Positions 3,714 to 52,440 of a DNA stretch of 64,000 nucleotides are shown here, one piece after another. This DNA is from Massilia sp. S19_KUP03_FR1 (GTDB taxonomy: Bacteria > Pseudomonadota > Gammaproteobacteria > Burkholderiales > Burkholderiaceae_D): NCBI RefSeq assembly GCF_036688685.1, contig NZ_JAQQPS010000007.1:2013-66012 (forward strand), written 5' to 3'. The stretch's first letter is position 1. Each line of letters opens with the position of its first letter. A program made the position numbers and the translations under genes. The notes beneath the pieces were generated by a model, which saw only the letters and a list, made by a program, of their open reading frames with translations, did not search any database and had not been told where the DNA came from.

Positions 3714-5123
3714 TTAGTGCTGGTATGCACCGATATCGAAACCGACCGATGCATTGCGTGCCTTGCCGTCGATGTCCGTCGCAGGGGCATTCGTGGCCGT
3801 ACCGCGCGCGATGGCCGGCGAGCTGGCACTCAGGTGGAAGTCCGGCGTGGTCGCCGTGGACGAATAGCCAATGAACAACGGGTCCGAGCTGACGGTACCG
3901 GTGGCCGTCAGGCCGTTGCGCAAGCTGATCGCGGTGCCGTTCTTGTACACCAGGTTGTTGGTGTAGCGGTTGCCGGTACCGGTCTTGCCCTGCTCCGAGA
4001 TGCCGATGCCATTGTTGTACAGAATGTTGTTGGCCACGATGGTGTTGTTGTTGCCGCCCGAGGTGAAGTAAAAGTCGCCGCCGCCGACGATGATGCCGTA
4101 GTGCGAATCGGTCACCGTGTTGTTGGTGATGATGACATTGGTCGCGTCGTGCCAGAGGTGGATCGCCGCTTCGCCGACGCGGTAGACCAGGTTATTTTTC
4201 ACGCTGCCGGAGGTCGACACATAGATGCCCTGGATGAATTTGCACGCCTTCGGCCCGATGTCGTTGACGGTGTTGGCGACGATGTCGTCATTGACCCCCT
4301 TGTAATAGCTGTCCACGCCGATGGCCGAGCCGCCGGCGCTGGTGCACGCGGCCGCATTGGCGATGTGGTGTACATGGTTTTCCTGGATCATGTCGTACGA
4401 GCCACCGCTATACAGGCCATGCAGCCAGAGCTTGCCCGTACCTGGCTTCGAGCCGTCGACATCGAAACCGACGATGCTGACGTAATTGCCGCGGTTATCC
4501 CAGGCATAGTCGGTCGACGAACTGGCCGGGGGCACGATCTTCGCGCCCCACTTGGTGGTCGAAACAAAATAGATGCGCGCGCCGGCCGTGCCGCTGGCGG
4601 TGGTCTTGATGCCGCCGGCATAGGTGCCAGGGGCGATCCAGACGGTGGTGCCGGCCTTGGTGGCCGCCTGTGCCGCACGCTTGAGGGTTTTGAAAGGTGC
4701 GGCCTTGGTACCGGCCGCGCTGTCGGAACCGGTCGGGGCGACGTAGTAATTGATGTTGGTGGCCGGGATGGTGGCGGCAGCGGTCACGTCGATGGCGACC
4801 GCGCTGGCCAGCAGTTTCGGGCTGCCGTCGGCGGCGAATGTGGGTGCGGCTTCTGGCGCGGCGTCGGCGCTCAATGGATGGCTGGCGTAACCGGCCAGGT
4901 CGAAACTGCCATCGGCGGCCGGGGCGCTATCGGCGACGGCCGGGGTGTTGCTGGCGGCATCGGTGACGATGCTGCTCGCGACGTAGCCGGCGGCCTGGCT
5001 GGTCTGGGCGGCGCCGCTGTCGGAAGGGCTGCCACCACCGCAGGCGGTAAGAAGAACAGCAGCGCTGCAGGCGATCAGGGCGTTGATGCGGACATCCGAA
5101 GCAAACGTGGTGAATTTCTTCAT
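3714..5123 (-). CDS. Lipoprotein with right-handed parallel beta-helix (pectate-lyase fold) repeat domain
   Basis: Signal peptide plus lipobox LLTACGGG. Low-complexity Ala/Ser linker. Repeated NNxI(V)xNN beta-helix rungs (NNNTIVANNILYNNGIGI). Confidence 0.8.
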   Translation of the reverse strand: MKKFTTFASDVRINALIACSAAVLLTACGGGSPSDSGAAQTSQAAGYVASSIVTDAASNTPAVADSAPAADGSFDLAGYASHPLSADAAPEAAPTFAADGSPKLLASAVAIDVTAAATIPATNINYYVAPTGSDSAAGTKAAPFKTLKRAAQAATKAGTTVWIAPGTYAGGIKTTASGTAGARIYFVSTTKWGAKIVPPASSSTDYAWDNRGNYVSIVGFDVDGSKPGTGKLWLHGLYSGGSYDMIQENHVHHIANAAACTSAGGSAIGVDSYYKGVNDDIVANTVNDIGPKACKFIQGIYVSTSGSVKNNLVYRVGEAAIHLWHDATNVIITNNTVTDSHYGIIVGGGDFYFTSGGNNNTIVANNILYNNGIGISEQGKTGTGNRYTNNLVYKNGTAISLRNGLTATGTVSSDPLFIGYSSTATTPDFHLSASSPAIARGTATNAPATDIDGKARNASVGFDIGAYQH

Positions 5124-6820: not shown

Positions 6821-6974
6821 GGAGAAAAAATTTTGCGCCGTGCGAAACCGACCACGACCGTTAGCCCGATGGAAACCGAACAAATATTGCGCAATATCGA
6901 CGTTTCGGAGGCAACTTCTGACGCCATGCGACGGTCTTACAAGGCCTTACCTCACTGCCTTGGGAGACGTCGCG

Positions 6975-7352
6975 ATGGAATCCGTTTTACATTTGAAGCC
7001 GGCTTTGAAAGACGGCGAAATCTATGCTGGCCTGATCTTGGGGAAGGATGGCCAGCATGACTATCACGTCGTGCTGTTGCCCGACGACGCCGGCGATGTC
7101 AGCTGGACGCTGGCGCGCAGCTGGGCCGACCAGCACGGCGGCGAACTGCCCAGCTGCCGCGAGCTGTCGCTGCTGTTCGCCAATCTGCGCGAGCAATTTC
7201 AGCGCGAGTGGTACTGGTCGAGCGAGCAGCACCGCACGCGCATCCAGCTGGTGTGGGGAGAGAATTTTGCCAGTGGAATACAAACCGCGTATGGCCGCCA
7301 GTTCCGGGGCCACGCGCGGGCAGTGCGGCGCGTGGCCATCGACGGGCATTGA
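6975..7352 (+). CDS. DUF1566 (Lcl C-terminal domain)-like protein
   Basis: GGELPSCRELSLLF...EWYWSSEQ pattern is typical of DUF1566. ATG at 6975; the longer TTG-initiated ORF from 6819 is less likely. Confidence 0.5.
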   Translation: MESVLHLKPALKDGEIYAGLILGKDGQHDYHVVLLPDDAGDVSWTLARSWADQHGGELPSCRELSLLFANLREQFQREWYWSSEQHRTRIQLVWGENFASGIQTAYGRQFRGHARAVRRVAIDGH

Positions 7353-10890: not shown

Positions 10891-11134
10891 CGGCTCAGCC
10901 AGCTCTTGAAGAAGGCATCCCAGCCGTTCACACTCTGGAGGTGAATCGCGCCGCGCGCGCGTTCTCCGGCCGCACATTGCCAATGCGTGCCGGATGCCGC
11001 TGCCTGCGCGAAACGCCGGTAGGCCATCGCGCCATCTGTGAAGGATGAAAAAAGTCATCACCGGCTGAGCGAATCCGACACCAGAAAAAGAAGAACATCA
11101 CTTGCCGTATATGCAACTACGCTTTTACACTGTG
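10891..11134. repeat. About 245-bp direct repeat, copy 1 (about 80% identical to 13967..14213)
   Basis: Alignable block ending in the conserved TATATGCAACTAC-N-TTTTACACTGTG. The minus strand carries a MAY.. ORF start, but its reading frame is not conserved between the two copies. Confidence 0.7.
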
Positions 11135-11644
11135 CCTCGAGCGACTTGCGCCCTCGGCCAAAAGCTGTGGTTCGCCGCTAGCCCAAATCTCTCTTTATTG
11201 CGCAAAAAATTATGCATGCCAGGCGCTCGCGATAGCAAACAACGGTGCTGGCGATCAGCTGCTCTTCCTTCGTTCTAACGACTGGTACGAGGCAGAAGTT
11301 TACTACTGGTCACACGAAACCGGTGACTTGACTAAGGTGGCAGAGGATTTTGCCCAGCTCGAACGTCTGTACATGCCGCAAGAAACTGGCCGTGCTGCTC
11401 CACCGTCCGCTTTGGGCAGGGAGCTGCCTGGCTTGATAGTTTGCGGGTTTTTCGCCTTGGCAACCCGCTATGCTTGCTCGACAGGCCGAAACAGGGCAAA
11501 AGCTGTCACACCACGCCCAACTAGACATCCATAGTGAACGGATACAAATTTTGTTCGTAAATTCATCGGTACAAAAATGGTAATCGCCAGTAGTTTCAAG
11601 ATGATACTATTAGTTTCTAATTAATTTTGAATCGGTGTCGTCGC

Positions 11645-12265
11645 ATGAATTCGTCAACAGTATCCGGTGTAGTCACTCGCCGTACCTCCCGGGCCGTTTT
11701 CGACATCCTGCTGTTTTGGTTGGCGTTTCACTCTGTTGCGCAAGCCGACAGCCAATATCTGCAACGCGGTGCAGGCGCGGCAGGCGGCATCGTCGCAGGC
11801 ATTTACATACACGAGTTAGGCCATGCGGCCGTGTCCGACTTCGCCGGTGCAGAACACATCCGCATCCGCATCCCGGGTGCGCACTGCAAGCTGCTTTGCG
11901 GGCAGACAGATGTCACCTGGTCGGCGCGTCCCAGCGCCCCGCAGAGGCGCCTGATTACTGTGGCTGGTTTTGTGAGCAGTAACGTGGCGGCAGAAATTAT
12001 GCTTCAGCACGAAAGCTTGGCCCGCTCCGGCTTCGGCCAAGGGTTGATCGCGACCAACTTGTATTCGAACGCGGTGCACGTGTTTTCGTATTACACCAAG
12101 GTGCGCGGTCGGAACGGCTATCAAGGCAACGATATCGATTCCTTTGAATTGGCAGGTGGCAACCCCCACCTGTTGTCGGCGGGGCTGCTGGCCTATTCGG
12201 CGTATGCCCTGCATCGCATGCACAAGAAACATATACCGGTGCTGTTCGTTAGTGCCCGTTTCTGA
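11645..12265 (+). CDS. Putative secreted HExxH zinc metallopeptidase-like protein
   Basis: Signal peptide (LLFWLAFHSVAQA). IHELGHAAV motif. Low-GC context. Confidence 0.5.
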   Translation: MNSSTVSGVVTRRTSRAVFDILLFWLAFHSVAQADSQYLQRGAGAAGGIVAGIYIHELGHAAVSDFAGAEHIRIRIPGAHCKLLCGQTDVTWSARPSAPQRRLITVAGFVSSNVAAEIMLQHESLARSGFGQGLIATNLYSNAVHVFSYYTKVRGRNGYQGNDIDSFELAGGNPHLLSAGLLAYSAYALHRMHKKHIPVLFVSARF

Positions 12266-12507
12266 CGGGTGATCGCGTCTCGTGCTCTTGCCAAAGGCGA
12301 AAGTTCGCGTCTTGGCCCAGCGCAGCTCCCTTTTGGCTTTCTGGTTTGCGAAAATGCGCCACGACTTTAGCCAGGGTACAGAGGTATTTTCCCTCTCGAA
12401 CCTTCCCTTTGGCTGTTGGATTCGCCACTACATCGGTAGTCACCTTTCAGCGATCATGTTTCGAACGGCTGCGATGGGTCGGATAGATACTGTAGGGCCA
12501 GCCTACG

Positions 12508-12570
12508 AGCTTTTACTGTTTACATTCTGATATGCCGAGCCGAAAACAGCCACGTTCGGCCAACTGTGGA
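12508..12570 (+). repeat. Structured intergenic repeat family, partial copy A (3' half)
   Basis: GATATGCCGAGCCGAAAACAGCCACGTTCGGCCAA. The hairpin CCGAA...TTCGG replaces the inner palindrome. Confidence 0.4.
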
Positions 12571-12627
12571 TACAGTTACAATGTAATAAATATTACTTTG
12601 GAAATACCCAAATTCTGAAAGAAGCAA

Positions 12628-13167
12628 GTGAAAAAATCCTCTCCAACGTGGAGTGATGTCAAAACGAAGTTGGGGGACTTCGACCGCGCTGGCATGCTGG
12701 CCTTGGTGCAGGATATGTACGCCGCCAGCAAAGAAAACCGATCATTTCTGCAGGCTCGATTTGGCCTGGGCGCGGATACCCTCAAGTCCTACAAAACGAC
12801 GATTGCGCGTTGGCTTTGGCCGGACATCTCCAGGGGCCAGGACACTTCGATTTCTAAGGCCAAGAAAGCAATAGCTGACTACAAGAAGGCCGTCGGACGA
12901 CCGGAGGACCAGGCTGAACTGATGACCTTCTATTGCGAGCAGGCGGCAGGCTTTTGCCGCGATGTTGGCTTCTCGGATGAGCGCTTTTTCGTTTCGTTGA
13001 TGGGCATGTTCAGCAAGGCGCTGAAATTGACCCTAACCCTGGCCCCTGTGCCGCGCGATAGTTTGCTGGAGCGTCTCGACGAAGTGAGTCGAATCAGCCA
13101 GGACTTTGGCTACGGGGTGGGTGACGAAATGAACGACCTGCTCGACGAGTACTCGGCTAATGACTGA
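12628..13167 (+). CDS. Hypothetical protein (islet cassette gene)
   Basis: 179-aa ORF with GTG start, unremarkable composition and no recognisable domain. Stop abuts the next ORF. Confidence 0.45.
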   Translation: MKKSSPTWSDVKTKLGDFDRAGMLALVQDMYAASKENRSFLQARFGLGADTLKSYKTTIARWLWPDISRGQDTSISKAKKAIADYKKAVGRPEDQAELMTFYCEQAAGFCRDVGFSDERFFVSLMGMFSKALKLTLTLAPVPRDSLLERLDEVSRISQDFGYGVGDEMNDLLDEYSAND

Positions 13168-13284
13168 GTGGACGGCGACTATCGGTCGATTTCGGCCAGA
13201 ACCGGACTTTCGCAGATCGATAGCGTTCGGCCAACAGCCGCCGTTCGCAAACAGTACTCCCGACGCCATTTCAATGATCACGAC

Positions 13285-13800
13285 ATGACCTCAATCGACG
13301 AAACTTCAAGAGCTATTTTCAGCGCTGCTCGAGAAGGCGACGCAGATACGTTGCTGAGTCTGATAGGCACGAGCCAAGACCGTTTACACGCGCAAACGCC
13401 TTTCGGAACACTTTTGCACATTACGTACGCACGCGGCGATATCGCACTTGTTAAGGAGTTAATTAACCTTGGCGCCGATATTGATCGACGCGGCGGCACG
13501 TTCGACGGTACCGCAATCAATCTGGCAGCATCAAAAGGACAGGTCGAGATCGTCGAGTATCTACTTGAATGTCAGGCCGAGTTGGACGTGAGCGATCCGG
13601 AGCGCAAACTTCTTTGGGGCGGAATCGACTCCGGCAGCGTCGAGATCGTGAAACTACTCGTGGCAGCAGGGATCGACGCAACGGTCAGATATTCAGGTAA
13701 GAACATGACGAATATGGGCGCACTCGATTTTGCTATCGAGAGGGGGCAGGTTGAAGTCGCCGAGTTTCTACAGACTCTGCCTTCGATGCGTGTCAATTGA
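13285..13800 (+). CDS. Ankyrin-repeat protein
   Basis: About 4 ANK repeats (TPLHITYARGDIALVKELINLGADID, TAINLAASKGQVEIVEYLLE, GALDFAIERGQVEVAEFL). ATG at 13285; the ORF is also open from a GTG at 13168. Confidence 0.75.
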   Translation: MTSIDETSRAIFSAAREGDADTLLSLIGTSQDRLHAQTPFGTLLHITYARGDIALVKELINLGADIDRRGGTFDGTAINLAASKGQVEIVEYLLECQAELDVSDPERKLLWGGIDSGSVEIVKLLVAAGIDATVRYSGKNMTNMGALDFAIERGQVEVAEFLQTLPSMRVN

Positions 13801-13966
13801 GAGGCGCGTGTTTTGCCGGCGAACCTCGCTGCCGTAGCAATCGAGGCAACGTCTGGTTTTGGGCGAAACCGACTGGTCAATCACACACGGCTGGCCAGTG
13901 AAATTTTTATCACGTGTAGATCGCAACGAAACAATGACCTCCGCCGCGTCAGTGACGGCTATTAAC

Positions 13967-14213
13967 CGGCGCAGCCAGCCCTTGAACCGGGCATGCCAGC
14001 CGTATTCATTCGGGATCTGGATCGCGCCTCGCGCGCGTTCTCCGGCCCGCACATTGACAAATGCGTGGCGGATGCCGCTGTCCTGCGCGAAATGCCAGTA
14101 GGCCATCGCGCCATCTGTGGAGGATGAAAAAAGTTATCACGGGCCGAGCAGAACCGTCCGCAGAAAAATAAAAACATCCCTTGCGGTATATGCAACTACT
14201 CTTTTACACTGTG
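13967..14213. repeat. About 245-bp direct repeat, copy 2
   Basis: Aligns with 10891..11134. It carries three 1-nt indels relative to copy 1, which shift the MAY-frame ORF. This is consistent with a non-coding or decayed element. Confidence 0.7.
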
Positions 14214-14520
14214 TCTACGCTGTGCAGAAGAAGCATTCAGAACGGATTAAACGTTGGGACGAGGGACGCGCAGTACGTAGAAACAACCCCAAAAATTTTC
14301 AATGATTTGCAGACATGCGTCTCAGCTGCGAAGTTGCTTTGGACGGGGCCTACGTAAGTGCGCTGCACGTGCAGTCCACTTGGCTTCTGAGCCGCGACTT
14401 AATTGATCCGCCTTGGATCGGCAGCCGCCTGTCGAGACAGTCTGCAACTTTTCCAGCTCGGTAACGTGCTATGGTCAATCAAGAGGCTGGATTTTTCCAC
14501 GACCTGCACCAACCAATTCA

Positions 14521-14952
14521 ATGAGGACCAAGTTGGAGAGTGATCGCATAGCAGAATTCGTCGGCCAGACAAATGTATCTCCTGCGCAGTTGTCCGCGGC
14601 TGAGCGCGATACTGTAGTGCGGATTCTCAACAGCCAATTCGCCGTCAACGCAAAATCACTCAGGCCATGGGACGCAACGAATGCCCCAGGCGGCGTACAA
14701 ACTGCAATCGGTTGTGCGTTGATATCAAATTACGTAGCTGACTCCCCGTGTCTGGTATTTTCGTCGGGTGCACCTTCGGTATGGAACTTTTCCAACGGGT
14801 CGGATTTACTGCTTTTCTTAAAGGCTTCGCCACCTTTCGAATTCTATGTCTGCGATGACTTAGCAACCTACATGCTTTGTTATACCGATCATGACTTCAT
14901 TATTGGATGGGGGAAGAGCACTGCATGGGTGGAGCAACTTCGGGCAGATTGA
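14521..14952 (+). CDS. Hypothetical small protein (immunity-protein-like)
   Basis: 143-aa ORF in the low-GC islet. It is followed by a structured repeat. No SD; a TTG at 14413 is an alternative start. Confidence 0.4.
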   Translation: MRTKLESDRIAEFVGQTNVSPAQLSAAERDTVVRILNSQFAVNAKSLRPWDATNAPGGVQTAIGCALISNYVADSPCLVFSSGAPSVWNFSNGSDLLLFLKASPPFEFYVCDDLATYMLCYTDHDFIIGWGKSTAWVEQLRAD

Positions 14953-14989
14953 TCCATCAAACGGACTTGCCGGCATGTCCGCTCAGGGT

Positions 14990-15076
14990 CGTTTCCGGTC
15001 TGTCCTGGCTGCCGCTGAATTTTCGCCATGGCATGCTGTTATGCCGAGTCGACCGGCCGAATTCGGCCAAAAGCGG
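14990..15076 (+). repeat. Structured intergenic repeat family, copy B
   Basis: 5' box GTTTCCGGTCTGTCCTGGCTGCCGCT. CCGCT(gaa)TTTT/AAAAGCGG outer stem. Perfect inner palindrome CCGGCCGAATTCGGCC. 3' GGCCAAA. Confidence 0.6.
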
Positions 15077-15130
15077 ACATAAACTAACGGACCGGCTCTG
15101 TCATTACCATAATCTTCAAGATGTACACAC

Positions 15131-15544
15131 ATGAGAAAAATGTACACTGTACTCCTGCTGTCGACTTTCTTGGTGGGCGCCCGTGCGCAAGCTGAACATA
15201 AAGAAGACTGCGATCGGGCTGAATACTCCCAGCAGTATGCTGCCGGCTTTAATCGCGAGCTAAATGGCGCGCTGGATAGATTCAAAAACCAGGATAAAAG
15301 CTCTCGATCCAAGTTGGACGGGATGAAAGCTGCCAGTGATTTCAAGGTGCAACTTTTGTCGCTGGACGGTATTCCTATGATAGCCGGGGGCAACAAAGCT
15401 GCGGAATTGCGCGCGACGTGTTTGCTTGGGCCAAATGCGATCAGCAAAGCTGACGTTTTGTATGCTGTCACGGAGCGGGCGTGGAAGTTACTCGAATCCA
15501 AGGTCGCAGCGGAAGCGCAAGTGAAAAAAGTTACCATGCCATAA
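15131..15544 (+). CDS. Small secreted hypothetical protein
   Basis: Signal peptide MRKMYTVLLLSTFLVGARAQA. 137 aa. Lys/Glu-rich. Confidence 0.55.
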   Translation: MRKMYTVLLLSTFLVGARAQAEHKEDCDRAEYSQQYAAGFNRELNGALDRFKNQDKSSRSKLDGMKAASDFKVQLLSLDGIPMIAGGNKAAELRATCLLGPNAISKADVLYAVTERAWKLLESKVAAEAQVKKVTMP

Positions 15545-15590
15545 AGTACGTTAGTGCAGGCCTGGCTCGCTAGCCAGATCCGCTTTGGGA

Positions 15591-15680
15591 CGTTTTCTGC
15601 CTGTGGCGCCACCCGCTCGATTTTCAACGTGCCCACCTGCTATGCCCGGCCGAAAGACCGGGTTGGGCCAAAATCGCTCC
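15591..15680 (+). repeat. Structured intergenic repeat family, copy C
   Basis: CGTTTTCTGCCTGTGGCGCCACCCGCT box. CGATTTT/AAAATCG outer stem. Inner hairpin CCCGGCCGAAAGACCGGG. GGCCAAA tail. Stem sequences differ from copy B but keep the pairing. Confidence 0.6.
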
Positions 15681-15702
15681 TGGATCAAGAAAGGAACTGC
15701 AA

Positions 15703-15866
15703 TGCCTCAGCTTTTTGCGCATGACCAAATGGACGTTTGGCACGACGGTTCTGCGATTTGTGTTATCGCTGTAGGTTCACATGGTGATCCATTAGATCTA
15801 TCCGAAAGCGAAGTCGAAGCTCTCATTGCGAAGCTGCAGGCGTCGCTGAAAAAAGCGCGTTCTTGA
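15703..15866 (+). CDS. Small hypothetical protein (54 aa)
   Basis: SD AAGGAA 5 nt before the ATG. Predicted amphipathic C-terminal helix. It sits between repeat copies C and D. Confidence 0.4.
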
Positions 15867-15892
15867 TCTGTCGGCCTGGAATTCCGCTATGG

Positions 15893-15975
15893 GTTGTTTC
15901 CGGCCTGTGGCGCCGGCCGCTGTATTTCTGACCTGGCAACTCGCCATATTCGGCCAGTAGCTGACAAAAGGTGCC
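15893..15975 (+). repeat. Structured intergenic repeat family, copy D (3' part degenerate)
   Basis: GTTTCCGGCCTGTGGCGCCGGCCGCT 5' box is shared with copies B and C. Confidence 0.45.
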
Positions 15976-16119
15976 GGGATATGCCCACCGATTGTCGGGA
16001 GTGAGCTCGAGAACGCATTTGATACACAACAATATTAATTTTACGACAAGTATGGCGTGGTCAATGATTGCCGGACGGTACGGCATGTCGCTGCTGCCAT
16101 CGATACGGGAACCGACACA

Positions 16120-16902
16120 ATGAAACGATTCATTTTGGCCGCCAGCTTGCTGGCGGGTAGCTTGGCCGGCCTTGCACAGGCCGCCGACAAGGCCGACGAT
16201 GCCCAGCTGCGCACGGCCATCGCAGGCAGCAACCGGAGTAGCACCAACGTGGCGCGCGATACTTGGCGCCATCCTTACGAAACGCTCACTTTCTTCGGCA
16301 TCAAGCCGACCATGACGGTGGTCGAACTGATGCCGGAAGGCGGCTGGTACACCGAGATCCTGGCGCCCTACCTGCGCCAGGACGGCAAACTGATCAGCGC
16401 CGGCCTCATACTCAGGAACTTGCTGGAGTCAAACCCGGCGGTCTATGGCAAGGTCGTGCGGGGCGCCTTCAATCCGCCAAAGGCCATCTACAACTTCGCC
16501 CCGCCAAACAGCGTTGACATGGTGCTCACCCTGCGCAACGTGCACAACTTCGTCGAGCTTGGCGACGACAAGGTCAAGGACATGTTCAAGGCGCTATACA
16601 CTAGCCTGAAGCCGGGCGGCGTGCTGGGCGTGACCGATCACCGCCTGCCAGAATCCATGCCGCAAGATGCCACGGCCACGAGCGGCTACGTCCACGAGTC
16701 GTATGTGATCAAAATGGCCGAGAGCGCCGGCTTCAAGCTGGCCGCCAAATCCGAGCTCAACGCCAATCCAAAGGACAAGGCCGACCACAAGGGCGGCGTG
16801 TGGGCGCTGCCGCCGACCCTGAGCAACGCCGCACTTGACCGCGACAAATACCAGGCCATCGGCGAGAGCGACCGCATGACGCTCAAGTTCGTGAAACCAT
16901 AA
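16120..16902 (+). CDS. Secreted class I SAM-dependent methyltransferase family protein
   Basis: Signal peptide MKRFILAASLLAGSLAGLAQA. VVELMPEGGWYTEIL SAM-binding-like motif. LKPGGVLGV. Confidence 0.7.
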   Translation: MKRFILAASLLAGSLAGLAQAADKADDAQLRTAIAGSNRSSTNVARDTWRHPYETLTFFGIKPTMTVVELMPEGGWYTEILAPYLRQDGKLISAGLILRNLLESNPAVYGKVVRGAFNPPKAIYNFAPPNSVDMVLTLRNVHNFVELGDDKVKDMFKALYTSLKPGGVLGVTDHRLPESMPQDATATSGYVHESYVIKMAESAGFKLAAKSELNANPKDKADHKGGVWALPPTLSNAALDRDKYQAIGESDRMTLKFVKP

Positions 16903-26958: not shown

Positions 26959-27188
26959 CACGCGGCGTCGTTCTACAGTATCAGGAACATCAGTATCCAG
27001 CCCAGCAGCAGCACCCCTTGCAGACCGAACACAAGTGCCGGAATTTCCAGTTCTTTGGGGATCTTCATGGCCGCTCCGCTTCTTTGCGCATACCCGTCTT
27101 AGTGTCGCCGCGAGGTGAAAAAGTTCCCGGCACCGTCGCAATGAAGGCAAATAAATCAGCTTGACGTGATATCACCAGGAGATGATAA

Positions 27189-27593
27189 TTGAATCAGCCT
27201 GCGAACTGGAAGGTGTCTTTCCATGATGATTTCGATCCCGAGTTCGACGCGTTTGCAGCCGATGTGCAAGATGAGCTGCTGGCCGCCGCCGCTGCGCTGA
27301 AACGGCTGGGGCCTGCAGCAGACCGGCCGCACGTCGGCACGCTGGACAATCCCAGCCATCCGAACATGAAAGAACTGCGTTTCAAGGCAAACAACGGCGC
27401 GGAAATTTGGCGGGCCGCGTTCGCCTTCGATCCGCAGCGGGAGGCGATCATCCTGGTTGCGGCGGACAAACAGGGCGTCGATGAAACGAAGTTCTACAAG
27501 AATTTGTTGAAGAAGGCTAACAAGCGCTTCGACCAACATTTGGCGAGCCTGGCGGCGCAGGTACAAGCCGGCGGCGGCAAGCAAAAAAAATAG
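27189..27593 (+). CDS. Type II toxin, HigB/RelE-superfamily (Gp49/PF05973-like)
   Basis: WKVSF..F..EFD.F, MKELRF and WRAAFAFDPQREAIILVAADKQG match Gp49-like toxins. AGGAGA SD; TTG start. Lys-rich tail. Confidence 0.6.
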   Translation: MNQPANWKVSFHDDFDPEFDAFAADVQDELLAAAAALKRLGPAADRPHVGTLDNPSHPNMKELRFKANNGAEIWRAAFAFDPQREAIILVAADKQGVDETKFYKNLLKKANKRFDQHLASLAAQVQAGGGKQKK

Positions 27594-27602
27594 GAGAGTG
27601 AC

Positions 27603-28040
27603 ATGGGCAGAAACCTCGACGACATCATCCACAGTTTGCCGGCTGAACGCCAGGCAAAGATTGCCCGCGCGGCCGACCAAAAAGTCGCGGACATGCTGGC
27701 CCATGCCACCACACTCGCCGAATTTCGCAAGGCTGTCGGCAAGACGCAGGCCGAGGTTGCAAGCGAGCTCGGCATCGGGCAGAACGCCGTCTCACAGATG
27801 GAGCAGCGTGCCGACACCTATGTTTCCACGCTGCGACGTTATCTGAAGTCGCTCGGGATGACGCTCGAATTGTCGGTGGTCGACAAGGATGGCGATCGGT
27901 ACGACTTGCCGTATTTCCTTCCCTGGCAGGCAACTGGACTGGAAGTGAATCAACAAGCGGCGTCCTACGCTGCCGAAAAAACATCCAGCGCGGCCACACC
28001 CGCAGTGCGCGCGAATCGGCGCAAGCCCGGCGCAGCATAA
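27603..28040 (+). CDS. XRE-family HTH antitoxin (HigA-like)
   Basis: HTH LAEFRKAVGKTQAEVASELGIGQNAVSQME. It starts 10 nt after the toxin stop and has a good SD. Confidence 0.7.
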   Translation: MGRNLDDIIHSLPAERQAKIARAADQKVADMLAHATTLAEFRKAVGKTQAEVASELGIGQNAVSQMEQRADTYVSTLRRYLKSLGMTLELSVVDKDGDRYDLPYFLPWQATGLEVNQQAASYAAEKTSSAATPAVRANRRKPGAA

Positions 28041-49927: not shown

Positions 49928-50002
49928 TGAAGGCGCCTGCGTGCAGGCCAGCGACGCCCCGCAGCGGGGATGGTAATCGTTTAAACGCTGAACCGCGCCC
50001 GC

Positions 50003-51103
50003 TCAGCGCGGCGCCATACGCCGTTCCATCGCCACTGGCCACATGCCCGGCAGAGCGGGGGCGACACGGCGCTCAACCCGGACTGTCGTCTTGCTGCGCC
50101 CGCCGATGGCAAGCGAGAATGGGCCGGGCATGACCCGCATCGCCATTTTGTAGAGTGCGATTAAGATTGCCACGACGACGAATGGCATCACGACCGTGAA
50201 TACAGGAACCGGAACCGGCGCGCCTGCCAATTTGTTCAATTTCCACAGGCCGAACAGTAAGGGGGCGTGAGAAATGAAGATAAAAAAGCTGTAGCGGCTC
50301 TGTTTTACAGCCCATTGACCGAAGCTGGTTTCGACCAGCACGGCGCTGATCGGCCAGATCAAGAATGGCGCCACCAGACGCAGGACGAGGATACTACCGT
50401 CACCAAACCACACTGCGTACATACATAACGCAACGAATGCTGCAAATGCGGGATAAGCGTATCGATCGATCGCGCGGAGATTAGATTGATGCAATGCAAT
50501 TATTCCGCCCGCATAAAACATGACCGGCATATCGCCGCGCAAAATCAATAAGCCGTCCAGGTCGGACAAGAAGAATACCGCAACGGCGGCCAGTCCGACA
50601 AAAGGTGTGCGGCGCAAAACCCATCCGAACAGTGGCGTCAATAGAATGAGCACCATCAAGTCGCGCAGGAAATACAGCGGAAGATTGATCGGATAGCCAA
50701 ATATGCCAAACATGGAAGTCAGCCAGGCGCGCGCATCCTGCATGGCGGCGCGGTCATAAACAATCGACGCGCCAAAAAAACGATCAGCCAGGACATCGAT
50801 CAACAGCATACCCAGGTTAAAGATCAGGAAGGGCAACAGCAGCGTGCGGGCTTTTTTGGCAATCAGCTTGCGAAAATTAGTATCCAGGCCAGATTTGAAC
50901 AGGCAATAACCTGAAATAAGCGTCAACACGGGCACCGTGGCGCGGAAAAAACCATTCTGGAAAAATGCGACCAACAGCGGAAACCATTCATTTGGCACCG
51001 CGCCATATGGCGCGTACGGTGGCGTATGTACCACGACGACTCCGAAAATCATCAGGAATCGAAGCATATTGATTCGCTGACTGACCGCACCTTGAATTGC
51101 CAC
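50003..51103 (-). CDS. Acyltransferase family 3 membrane protein (lower-GC gene)
   Basis: MLRFLMIFGVVVVHT N-terminal motif. Polytopic. GC about 50% against a 67% background. It is followed by a 450-bp AT-rich intergenic region. Confidence 0.75.
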   Translation of the reverse strand: MAIQGAVSQRINMLRFLMIFGVVVVHTPPYAPYGAVPNEWFPLLVAFFQNGFFRATVPVLTLISGYCLFKSGLDTNFRKLIAKKARTLLLPFLIFNLGMLLIDVLADRFFGASIVYDRAAMQDARAWLTSMFGIFGYPINLPLYFLRDLMVLILLTPLFGWVLRRTPFVGLAAVAVFFLSDLDGLLILRGDMPVMFYAGGIIALHQSNLRAIDRYAYPAFAAFVALCMYAVWFGDGSILVLRLVAPFLIWPISAVLVETSFGQWAVKQSRYSFFIFISHAPLLFGLWKLNKLAGAPVPVPVFTVVMPFVVVAILIALYKMAMRVMPGPFSLAIGGRSKTTVRVERRVAPALPGMWPVAMERRMAPR

Positions 51104-51651
51104 GCGATTTCCTTTGTAATTACATGCTGAATCTGAGATGGGATCAGAAAGATACCACGAAATTCACATAGTTGCCCAAATAATATTATGGTTTTTTCTA
51201 GGTAATTTTTTACGAGCCGGTTTACGATTGCCGTTTCTGAAGACCGCTTCCGAGACACGCCCCCCGCCCGTATTGACGGCTGAGAAACCAGTGCCAATGG
51301 ATGAGTAATGCTGCTGTGCAAGATGTGTACATTATAATATTAATTTACGCATGTCCAGCGTAGCTCTATTGAATCAGTATAAAAGTGTGTCCTGTTGAAC
51401 AAGCGGCGCACGCCAGTTCAGCCATGTCAGCAGTTTTTCTGTCGCGTGTTCTTGTGCGGGTTTTGACACGGGGTTCGTGGTTTCAAGAGGCTTTCACGAT
51501 ATGCAACCGGGCGCCCGGCGATCAAGTCGAGCAAATGCCTGAGCCGAATTGCCGATCGGGTATCATCAGCGCCACCTATCGCTTTCTGGTGCAATCATTG
51601 ATTGCCGCCGTGGCGCTGAAACCCGCATCGATCAAGAGTCTGGAGCAAAAA

Positions 51652-52440
51652 ATGAAGATTGCCACCTTTAACATCAACGGCATTGGCAGCCGCCTGCCGG
51701 CCCTGCTCCAATGGTTGGAAGAAACCCAGCCGGATGTCGCCTGCCTGCAGGAACTGAAAGCCCCGACCGAGAAATTCCCAGAGCAAGCGCTGCGCGATAT
51801 CGGCTATCACGCGATCTGGCAGGGCCAAAAAAGCTGGAATGGTGTGGCGATCCTGGCACGCGGCGTGCAGCCGCAGGAAGTGCAACGTGGCTTGCCGGGT
51901 GACACCAGCGACGAGCAAAGCCGCTACCTGGAAGCGGCTGTCAACGGCGTGCTGATCGCATGCCTGTACCTGCCCAACGGCAACCCTGCGCCCGGCCCCA
52001 AGTTCGACTACAAACTGGCCTGGATGGAGCGCTTCATCGAGCGCGCCGCCGGCCTGTACGCCAGCGGCGCGCCGGTGGTGCTGGCCGGCGACTACAACGT
52101 CATTCCGACCCCTGACGACGTCTACAAACCCGAACGCTGGCTGACAGACGCCCTGTTTCGCCCCGAAACCCGGGCCGCATTCGAGCGCCTGATGGCGCAG
52201 GGCTGGCTCGATGCGCTGCGTCACATGCATCCGGACGAAACGATCTACACCTTCTTCGACTATTTCCGCGAAGCCTACAAGCGCAACGCCGGCCTGCGCA
52301 TCGACCATTTATTACTCAGTCCGGCCGTCGCCCGGGGTCTCGTTGCAGCGCAAGTCGACCACGATGTGCGCGGCCGCGAGAAGCCGAGCGACCACGCGCC
52401 GACCTGGATCGAACTGGATATGACGAAAGTGCACGGTTAG
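51652..52440 (+). CDS. xth: Exodeoxyribonuclease III
   Basis: MKIATFNINGI ... CLQELK ... full-length ExoIII similarity. The upstream in-frame ORF extension is not coding. Confidence 0.9.
   Translation: MKIATFNINGIGSRLPALLQWLEETQPDVACLQELKAPTEKFPEQALRDIGYHAIWQGQKSWNGVAILARGVQPQEVQRGLPGDTSDEQSRYLEAAVNGVLIACLYLPNGNPAPGPKFDYKLAWMERFIERAAGLYASGAPVVLAGDYNVIPTPDDVYKPERWLTDALFRPETRAAFERLMAQGWLDALRHMHPDETIYTFFDYFREAYKRNAGLRIDHLLLSPAVARGLVAAQVDHDVRGREKPSDHAPTWIELDMTKVHG

Follow-up and report, generated by a model that had tools for sequence, protein, structure and literature searches.

A low-GC island at positions 10895 to 15980 of a 64-kb stretch of the Massilia sp. S19_KUP03_FR1 genome (contig NZ_JAQQPS010000007.1; the whole 64,000-nt stretch is hereafter called the window) holds an entire array of small plus-strand genes interspersed with intergenic repeats of about 100 nt that belong to a single family. 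Both the repeat family and its cassette-like arrangement are real, whereas the covariation argument with which an earlier note on this DNA had introduced them does not hold. We give a probability of about one half to the reading that this is a cassette array resembling integrons and the rAID-1 clusters of Bacteroidales, in which non-canonical junction repeats are recombined in trans by a putative recombinase, probably of the tyrosine type. Comparison of contigs shows the repeats to be the sites where cassettes are joined, because a given gene unit can be found in several arrays, on plasmids and on chromosomes, with its breaks inside the repeat. By sequence and by cassette phase, the repeats are not canonical attC sites of the integron integrase IntI.

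Five recognisable copies of the repeat (A, H, D, E and F) and three degenerate pieces are present in the window, all on the plus strand, and an nhmmer profile built from the window copies returns E-values of 4e-28 to 2e-8 across the five. Copy A (11405..11510, E 2.9e-25) is full length and also appears in families D3 and D5 of the repeat search, copy H (14406..14493, E 2.4e-8) has a degenerate 3' arm, and copy D (14977..15083, E 3.9e-28), which coincides with inverted repeat I3, has the best-kept arms, ATGTCCGCT and AGCGGACAT. Copy E occupies 15578..15684 (E 6.1e-27), and copy F (15882..15972, E 2.3e-20), the last of the array, has lost about 21 nt internally. The earlier note had listed D, E and F, all of which were recovered within about 13 nt by the repeat search and nhmmer, but it had overlooked A and H. 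The half copy that it described does exist, but as the weak, degenerate copy B (12474..12571; E 0.067, or about 0.07, over 12474-12563; repeat families D8 and D12), which still has the central motif and a 3' box, TTCGGCCAAC, at 12555-12571. Copy C (13180..13250, repeat family D4) consists of two tandem 3'-box modules, TTCGGCCAGAACCGGAC and TTCGGCCAACAGCCGCC, without a 5' box. Fragment G (11153..11175) is a 3' box only (TCGGCCAAAAGCTGTGG). Because it abuts the end of a remnant resembling an insertion sequence (IS), the IS probably cut a repeat copy there.

The boxes do not occur at random, since the motif TTCGGCCAAAAGC is found 10 times in the window at up to two mismatches, compared with 2.2 occurrences expected, and 8 of the 10 lie inside the island. 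The copies are confined to 11.1-16.0 kb, with one ahead of every small plus-strand open reading frame (ORF), and each copy is flanked on both sides by such ORFs. Across the remaining 59 kb, core-gene intergenic regions included, motif and profile searches found no copy; a 5'-box match at 50971 was set aside as chance because it falls within a coding gene. The island (53% GC against 67%) has local GC values of 0.52-0.55, compared with 0.62-0.74 in its flanks, and is bordered on the left by a Gly-zipper gene with its terminator (ending at about 10790) and on the right by the promoter region of a methyltransferase-like gene. There is no tRNA or tmRNA gene in the window that might serve as its anchor. 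Two further low-GC patches, at about 27000-28000 (0.58) and at 50000-52000 (0.54), the latter including a minus-strand gene for a 366-aa membrane protein (50003-51103), carry no repeat copy.

The family extends well beyond this chromosome, as the earlier note had proposed to check. One genome scan and one metagenome scan yielded 39 near-full-length copies, of which 32 are non-redundant and were aligned. Members occur in soil metagenome contigs, on two plasmids of Massilia forsythiae GN2-R2 and on plasmid p356839 of Janthinobacterium lividum EIF2. Most of the other loci (for example L011, L013, L014, L017 and L020 of those fetched) are arrays of copies in the same orientation, 350-800 bp apart, with one small ORF between them. 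The relative L038, with 89% nucleotide identity in the flanking methyltransferase gene, has a different array of four copies with ORFs of 107 and 82 aa at the same chromosomal position, directly upstream of that gene, and two more mini-arrays at intergenic sites within 20 kb. In L040, repeat copies lie downstream of the methyltransferase gene. In L041-L043, the site upstream of it is empty, and these genomes align to the window only from about 15981-15997 onward. Judged by these alignments, the position upstream of the methyltransferase is a hypervariable site. A literature search by sequence strings returned chance primer matches only and no description of the repeat, and there is none in Rfam either.

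The mobility of the cassettes is seen in a unit of about 440 bp, composed of a repeat and an ORF for a 74-aa membrane protein, that recurs at 97-99% identity in six contigs, where five unrelated sequences precede it. The identity starts at the 5' box and stops in the 5' box of the next repeat. When this ORF is compared between L011 and L017, the upstream repeats are 99% identical, whereas the downstream ones are only 67.6% identical, against a family background of 68 +/- 7%. Because the ORF keeps its upstream repeat and not its downstream one, the unit is repeat-ORF, which is the opposite phase to that of a classical integron cassette. A junction between L017 and L019 reads GTCCGGTT followed by TGGGTCGG in one contig and GACTGCTA followed by TGGGTCGG in the other, then continues for 955 nt at 97% identity; the break sits between box nucleotide 8 and GGGTCG. 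The J. lividum plasmid (L046) contains an 853-bp internal duplication that starts near the internal palindrome of a repeat and ends after a 5' box. In the window, blastn and alignment of copy F with the last copy of the L038 array place the start of orthology at TTCGGCCAGTAGC, position 15949, which indicates that the 3' arm of copy F belongs to the chromosomal flank.

The family consensus of about 100 nt begins with a 5' box, (S)AAN-GTCYGC-TTTGGGTCG, continues with a conserved central motif of 16 nt, GCAACCTGCTATGCTG, and a perfect internal 7-6-7 palindrome, GCCGAAC-GGCCGG-GTTCGGC, and ends with a 3' arm, CCAAAAGCRGAC-NTT, which is an inverted copy of the 5' box. Every element contains two direct (S)AAC-N6-(K)TT(S)GG motifs, one formed by the 5' flank and box and the other by the 7-6-7 palindrome. 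The whole 100 nt, not only the end boxes, is conserved in sequence, and the repeat always lies 20-70 nt 5' of a start codon. The centre is variable but the arms are kept: besides a 65-nt form there are a compact version of about 36 nt and versions carrying other insertions. Between the arms, the centre ranges from about 5 to about 130 nt.

Several relatives of this element were seen in the fetched loci. A second repeat of about 130 nt, GTGACTTTCCGAAATAGATGCGACGTTTTGGAA...GCTTCTTGCTGAGTTACA..., is also located 5' of cassette ORFs and shares its terminal compact hairpin and 3' box (GAACTTCYGSTTTCGGCCAARAGC) with the family described above. It occurs at L017:128-255 and 6935-7066, L021:2159-2290, L018:22-152, L028:14727-14851 and L006:~4740-4890, has no match in Rfam and is absent from the window. 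A long-hairpin variant, at L003:2150-2340 and L006:2950-3120, has a 20-nt inverted repeat (GGCCGAGCCTGTGTGAAAACTC ... GGAGTTTTCACACAGGCTCGGCC) inserted ahead of the 3' box (ATTAGCGGAC), and the L003 modules lie on both strands. In the genome scan, the core GTCCGCTTT...AAAGCGGAC also matched loci of Pseudomonas baetica and of metagenome-assembled genomes of other Proteobacteria. The palindrome core may be far more widespread than the 100-nt family.

The earlier note had rested its case on compensatory changes in paired stems. RNAalifold on the 32-copy alignment returned no consensus structure, covariation is at or below that of shuffles, and a column-by-column search of the same alignment found no helix of at least 4 bp that pairs in at least 70% of the copies. 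The outer stem proposed in that note pairs in 74.1% of cases, no better than the 74.6% of column shuffles (326 of 500 shuffles were as high), and its two inner hairpins occupy alignment columns that are not homologous. A small conserved hairpin, GGCCG-RRTT-CGGCC, shows no covariation at all. The terminal arms, GTCYGCTTTGG and CCAAAAGCRGAC, pair in 75.5% of cells over the inner 11 bp and in 69% overall, with one extra A on the 3' arm, compared with 30-44% when the partner is slid. By duplex energy, cognate arms pair no more stably than non-cognate ones (p 0.42 and p 0.145), and a circular-unit model, in which the 3' arm faces the 5' arm of the next copy, fares no better (p 0.14). The earlier note had suggested folding the bottom strand; when each copy was folded as single-stranded DNA on both strands, only copy D did better than shuffles (z -2.1 and -3.5), and the other five of six copies do not beat them. 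The repeat is a sequence-conserved element that bears inverted repeats at the consensus level, not a demonstrated covarying structure.

These results also bear on the possibility that the repeats are structured cis-acting RNAs or simple terminators in the 3' untranslated regions of the small genes, a reading that the earlier note had entertained. The intergenic position of the repeats, the folding of copy D and one weak terminator-like site within copy F would fit such a role. However, terminator-like sites are not in excess (7 found, 7.0 +/- 2.8 expected), just one of them lies in a repeat, and the conserved hairpin has no T-run after it. Rfam 15 gave no match in the 64 kb at the gathering score; at relaxed thresholds, the island yielded chance-level matches only at E up to 5, and the six array loci yielded none at E up to 0.1. 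Together with the empty consensus structure, the lack of covariation and the folding of most copies no better than shuffles, this has already largely ruled out an RNA or terminator function, which we regard as very improbable. A scan for promoters and terminators found no excess of either sigma-70 promoters or terminators. The central TGGCAA-N5-TATGC was considered as a sigma-54 site and rejected, since by eye its GG-GC spacing is one base too long.

A different account holds that the repeats are primarily a selfish element like the repetitive extragenic palindromic (REP) sequences and REPINs, or a 5' leader or regulatory module, and that cassettes are shuffled incidentally, by gene conversion and by homologous or short-homology recombination between the many copies. 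It would explain why the junctions are spread over more than one conserved block of the repeat, why the duplication in the J. lividum plasmid ends within repeats, why sequence rather than pairing is conserved over 100 nt, including the 16-nt central motif, and why the element always stands at a short distance ahead of a start codon; the hairpin with two inverted arms resembles REP doublets as well. On the other hand, there are no copies in the rest of the window or its core-gene intergenic regions, and tblastn detected neither RAYT nor IS608/IS200-type TnpA genes in the window or the fetched loci, so the REP-like reading of the earlier note finds no support in these searches. The lack of a sigma-70 promoter or terminator excess, of an Rfam family and of a consensus RNA structure also speaks against it, at 11-16 nt the conserved blocks are short substrates for exchange by RecA, and the copies move with accessory low-GC genes across plasmids and chromosomes. 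We consider this account rather unlikely.

A 326-aa XerC/D-like recombinase is encoded 1-2.5 kb from the arrays in L011, L023, L026-L029 and the 23-kb M. forsythiae plasmid. It scores under the NCBIfam cutoffs, and the integron-integrase model covers only its last 40 residues. A tblastn search with IntI1 and VchIntIA gave nothing in the window (best E 0.096, at an unrelated place), so the earlier suggestion to look for an intI-like gene led to none there or in the fetched loci. The XerD-like gene of L011 and L023 was examined as a dedicated array recombinase and rejected in that role, as a plasmid backbone gene with repeat-free homologues; it is kept as a candidate only. Just 3' of its stop codon in the plasmid contig L011, at 2420-2520, there are three tandem iteron-like repeats of about 22 nt (CAACCATCCTCAACCGAAAAA), and L023 has a different, AGGCAA-type iteron cluster at 1200-1290.

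In the mechanism that we propose, about seven small gene cassettes, forming an array without an integrase, would have been acquired horizontally by a Massilia-like (Oxalobacteraceae) chromosome, each cassette being headed by one member of the repeat family. A recombinase encoded elsewhere would act on the repeats either in duplex form, as core-like palindromes, or after they fold into a hairpin, and recombination would excise and insert repeat-plus-ORF units, as it does in integrons and in rAID-1 clusters. Both classes of junction coincide with (S)AAC-N6-(K)TT(S)GG motifs. This fits two core-like sites per element, but it fits short-homology recombination at conserved blocks equally well.

Several observations weigh against this mechanism. 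Three or four junctions are in the 5' box, whereas two are near the internal palindrome: the one at the left end of the duplication in L046 and the one at 15949, where orthology between the window and L038 begins. A recombinase acting at a single site predicts one junction position, and short-homology recombination at conserved blocks predicts the scatter observed. The independent mobility events are few, being essentially one cassette in several contexts and two other junctions. No recombinase is linked to the array, and the 64 kb contains no tyrosine recombinase. Searches of the window and of 47 fetched loci for IntI or a pseudogene of it came back empty, the loci yielding only XerC/D-like genes. 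The XerD-like gene sits among plasmid backbone genes (RepA/TrfA, ParA, H-NS, type IV secretion system), is found in either orientation relative to the arrays, and has homologues of 73-78% identity without repeats within 10 kb. Covariation of the terminal arms is not above column shuffles (76 of 500), and wobble pairs are balanced (30 GT versus 23 AC), so that neither strand is favoured; with neither covariation nor such a bias, there is no sign that folding is of consequence.

If non-canonical recombination sites do underlie the array, a broader proposal can be made, which we put forward tentatively and with more doubt than confidence. Oxalobacteraceae, and possibly other soil Proteobacteria, may possess an IntI-independent cassette system with its own elements, each having two core-like sites and inverted arms and standing at the 5' end of its cassette. 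A Xer-type or other non-IntI recombinase would use these elements to stock orphan toxin-immunity genes and pass them between chromosomes and plasmids, so that the system would be a proteobacterial counterpart of rAID with a defined site.

The cassette genes are mostly without recognisable relatives. At the left end of the array, a 5'-truncated gene (11181..11405, plus strand) encodes the C-terminal part of a SUKH/SMI1-KNR4 immunity-type protein, matching Pfam SUKH_6 with an E-value of 3.7e-6 (27.9 bits, cutoff 27) and SMI1_KNR4 with an E-value of 5e-6. It is followed on the same strand by ORFs of 206 aa (11645..12265), 179 aa (12628..13167), 171 aa (13285..13800), 143 aa (14521..14952), 137 aa (15131..15544) and 54 aa (15702..15866). 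The 171-aa protein has ankyrin repeats (Pfam Ank_2, E 8e-17), and the 137-aa protein has a signal-peptide-like N-terminal segment and belongs to no family. The 206-aa ORF, which is also called at the same locus of a Logan assembly, has no Pfam or NCBIfam match over the cutoff, and the 179-aa and 143-aa ORFs have no family either. Searches of Pfam, NCBIfam, PADLOC and PDB sequences with the cassette proteins recognised only the ankyrin protein and the SUKH fragment; 14 other cassette proteins have no Pfam match, and the remaining proteins of the window, like those of ten further cases, belong to no family.

The genes of the J. lividum array include ones annotated as immunity proteins of the type VI secretion system (Tdi1) and of contact-dependent inhibition. 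A few kilobases from the L038 array there is a giant protein resembling CdiA of two-partner secretion (L038:15209-20846), and PAAR, VRR-NUC and type VI immunity genes lie a few kilobases from the array of the J. lividum plasmid (L046:17752-20067). Such polymorphic-toxin machinery near the arrays fits the idea that some cassettes serve as immunity genes, and at least part of the cargo is predicted to be immunity-type genes against interbacterial toxins.

Two minus-strand IS-like remnants, which are outside the repeat family, occupy 10895..11140, where copy 1 interrupts the array, and 13975..14216 (copy 2, repeat family D1). They form a 245-nt direct duplication of 87% identity with three 1-nt indels, and their minus-strand translation has a weak similarity to the C-terminus of an IS1595-family transposase (E 0.05-0.09). 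A public assembly calls a 112-aa gene over copy 2 (13768-14106), which is probably a pseudogene. The right flank of the island is core sequence. The methyltransferase-like gene (16120..16902, plus strand), whose upstream region is the anchor common to the arrays of the window and L038, is 74% identical to its counterpart in Massilia sp. PDC64.

The repeat is open in all three plus-strand frames, and ORF callers therefore run through it and put spurious proteins into annotations; peptides such as GRFRPVA, FGQKRT and RPKADI derive from it in the window, at L019:11878-12324 and at L006:4849-5067. A protein-coding function of the repeat is ruled out by the 1-2-nt indels between copies and by the three open frames.

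If the repeats are true recombination sites, they would represent a second, sequence-distinct route to integron-like arrays, in which the site lies upstream of the gene and IntI takes no part. They would show how soil Betaproteobacteria gather small accessory genes, those for toxin immunity among them, on plasmids and at numerous intergenic positions. They would also define a class of cassette arrays liable to be overlooked or mis-phased by integron-finding software. M. forsythiae GN2-R2 and J. lividum EIF2 are cultured carriers.

The array shares many features with integrons. An attC site is an imperfect palindrome that folds into an R box, an unpaired spacer and an L box, with extrahelical bases and a variable terminal structure, and its outer 7-mers are R'' (RYYYAAC) and R' (GTTRRRY), in which AAC and GTT are nearly invariant. 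In an integron, intI is adjacent to the array, whereas in an integrase-less cassette array (CALIN) it is absent within 4 kb. Like these arrays, the present one has tandem, co-oriented, small and mostly orphan ORFs between imperfect-palindrome repeats of variable length, its repeats have one orientation and conserved ends, its base composition is foreign, no integrase is nearby, and cassettes are shuffled between arrays and replicons. In contrast, only 7 of the 32 aligned copies have the outer AAC, 4 have GTT and 1 has both, and none of the five window copies does. Instead of closing the element, the conserved GTTCGGC stands inside it, with only 6 nt between it and its complement, and conservation extends over the full 100 nt, whereas attC sites conserve the R and L boxes. 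The edges of the unit are at the 5' boxes of successive repeats, junctions occur at two places in the element, no locus has an IntI, and the L038 genome has several mini-arrays scattered over intergenic sites. In a classical integron cassette, by contrast, the ORF comes first and its own attC after it, and crossover takes place at the distal end of the site (PMC4889954).

A classical CALIN is one of the explanations to be weighed. In it, the repeats would be ordinary attC sites of a chromosomal-integron family, with folded bottom strands recombined by an IntI encoded elsewhere in the genome, and IntegronFinder would be expected to call them. CALINs are common, often without a nearby intI (Cury et al. 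2016, PMC4889954). The anatomy of the array and the variable central length fit attC, and the layout of the arms could correspond to a 7-mer, then a 5-nt spacer (GTCYG / CRGAC) and an L-like box, one arm having an extra base. Some copies do have xxxxAAC ... GTTxxxx at their outer ends, and the conserved GTTCGGC is one base off GTTRRRY. The earlier note had observed that a canonical GTTRRRY core occurs in only one copy, and this is so, the GTTGGGC of copy E standing where the family consensus has GTTCGGC. However, the outer AAC and GTT are too rare, the ORF is linked to its upstream repeat in the reverse of the ORF-attC phase, GTTCGGC is internal and almost adjacent to its complement, neither IntI nor its pseudogene was encountered, and there is no strand asymmetry. 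Ordinary attC sites are therefore improbable. The attC-like, CALIN-like description given in the earlier note is retained for the cassette-like array without an integrase, but not for classical attC identity, which is not supported by cores, phase or IntI neighbourhood. The lack of IntI would agree with a CALIN only if the sites are attC.

The repeats also resemble REP, BIME and REPIN elements in being intergenic imperfect palindromes with two inverted arms and a spacer and in forming a modular mosaic of compact, short, long and 'type 2' forms. Unlike REP sequences and REPINs, which are dispersed and mobilised by RAYT, the present copies occur only in accessory gene arrays, with a fixed gene orientation, and travel with ORFs. 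Xer-dependent modules, such as the pdif modules of Acinetobacter plasmids, are gene modules bounded by short palindromic sites resembling recombinase cores. The 7-6-7 palindrome and the compact 13-5-13 versions of the repeat recall them, although pdif sites alternate in orientation, whereas the repeat sites all have one orientation, and to our knowledge the repeat has no sequence similarity to dif or pdif. The attP site of the CTX phage is a folded hairpin, and two inverted half-sites about 80 nt apart could form a duplex-like site here too.

The rAID-1 clusters of Bacteroidales are conceptually the nearest published analogue. They have integron-like repetitive intergenic sequences and orphan immunity genes and are low in GC and co-directional (Ross et al., bioRxiv 10.1101/471110 / Nature 2019). 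The phylum is different here (Betaproteobacteria), and the repeat sequence is presumably unrelated. In rAID-1 a XerD-like gene stands at the 5' end and is co-directional, whereas the window array has no recombinase and the recombinase gene of the plasmid loci is a backbone gene of variable orientation without a fixed 5' position. Like rAID-1 clusters, the window array has a skewed GC content, co-directional small genes and intergenic repeats, a XerD-family recombinase is close to some arrays (plasmid loci L011, L023, L026-L029 and L045), and the arrays are on mobile DNA. Some of the cargo, in a few cassettes only, is likewise of the immunity type, as indicated by the SUKH fragment and the ankyrin gene in the window and by the Tdi1 and CdiI annotations in J. 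lividum.

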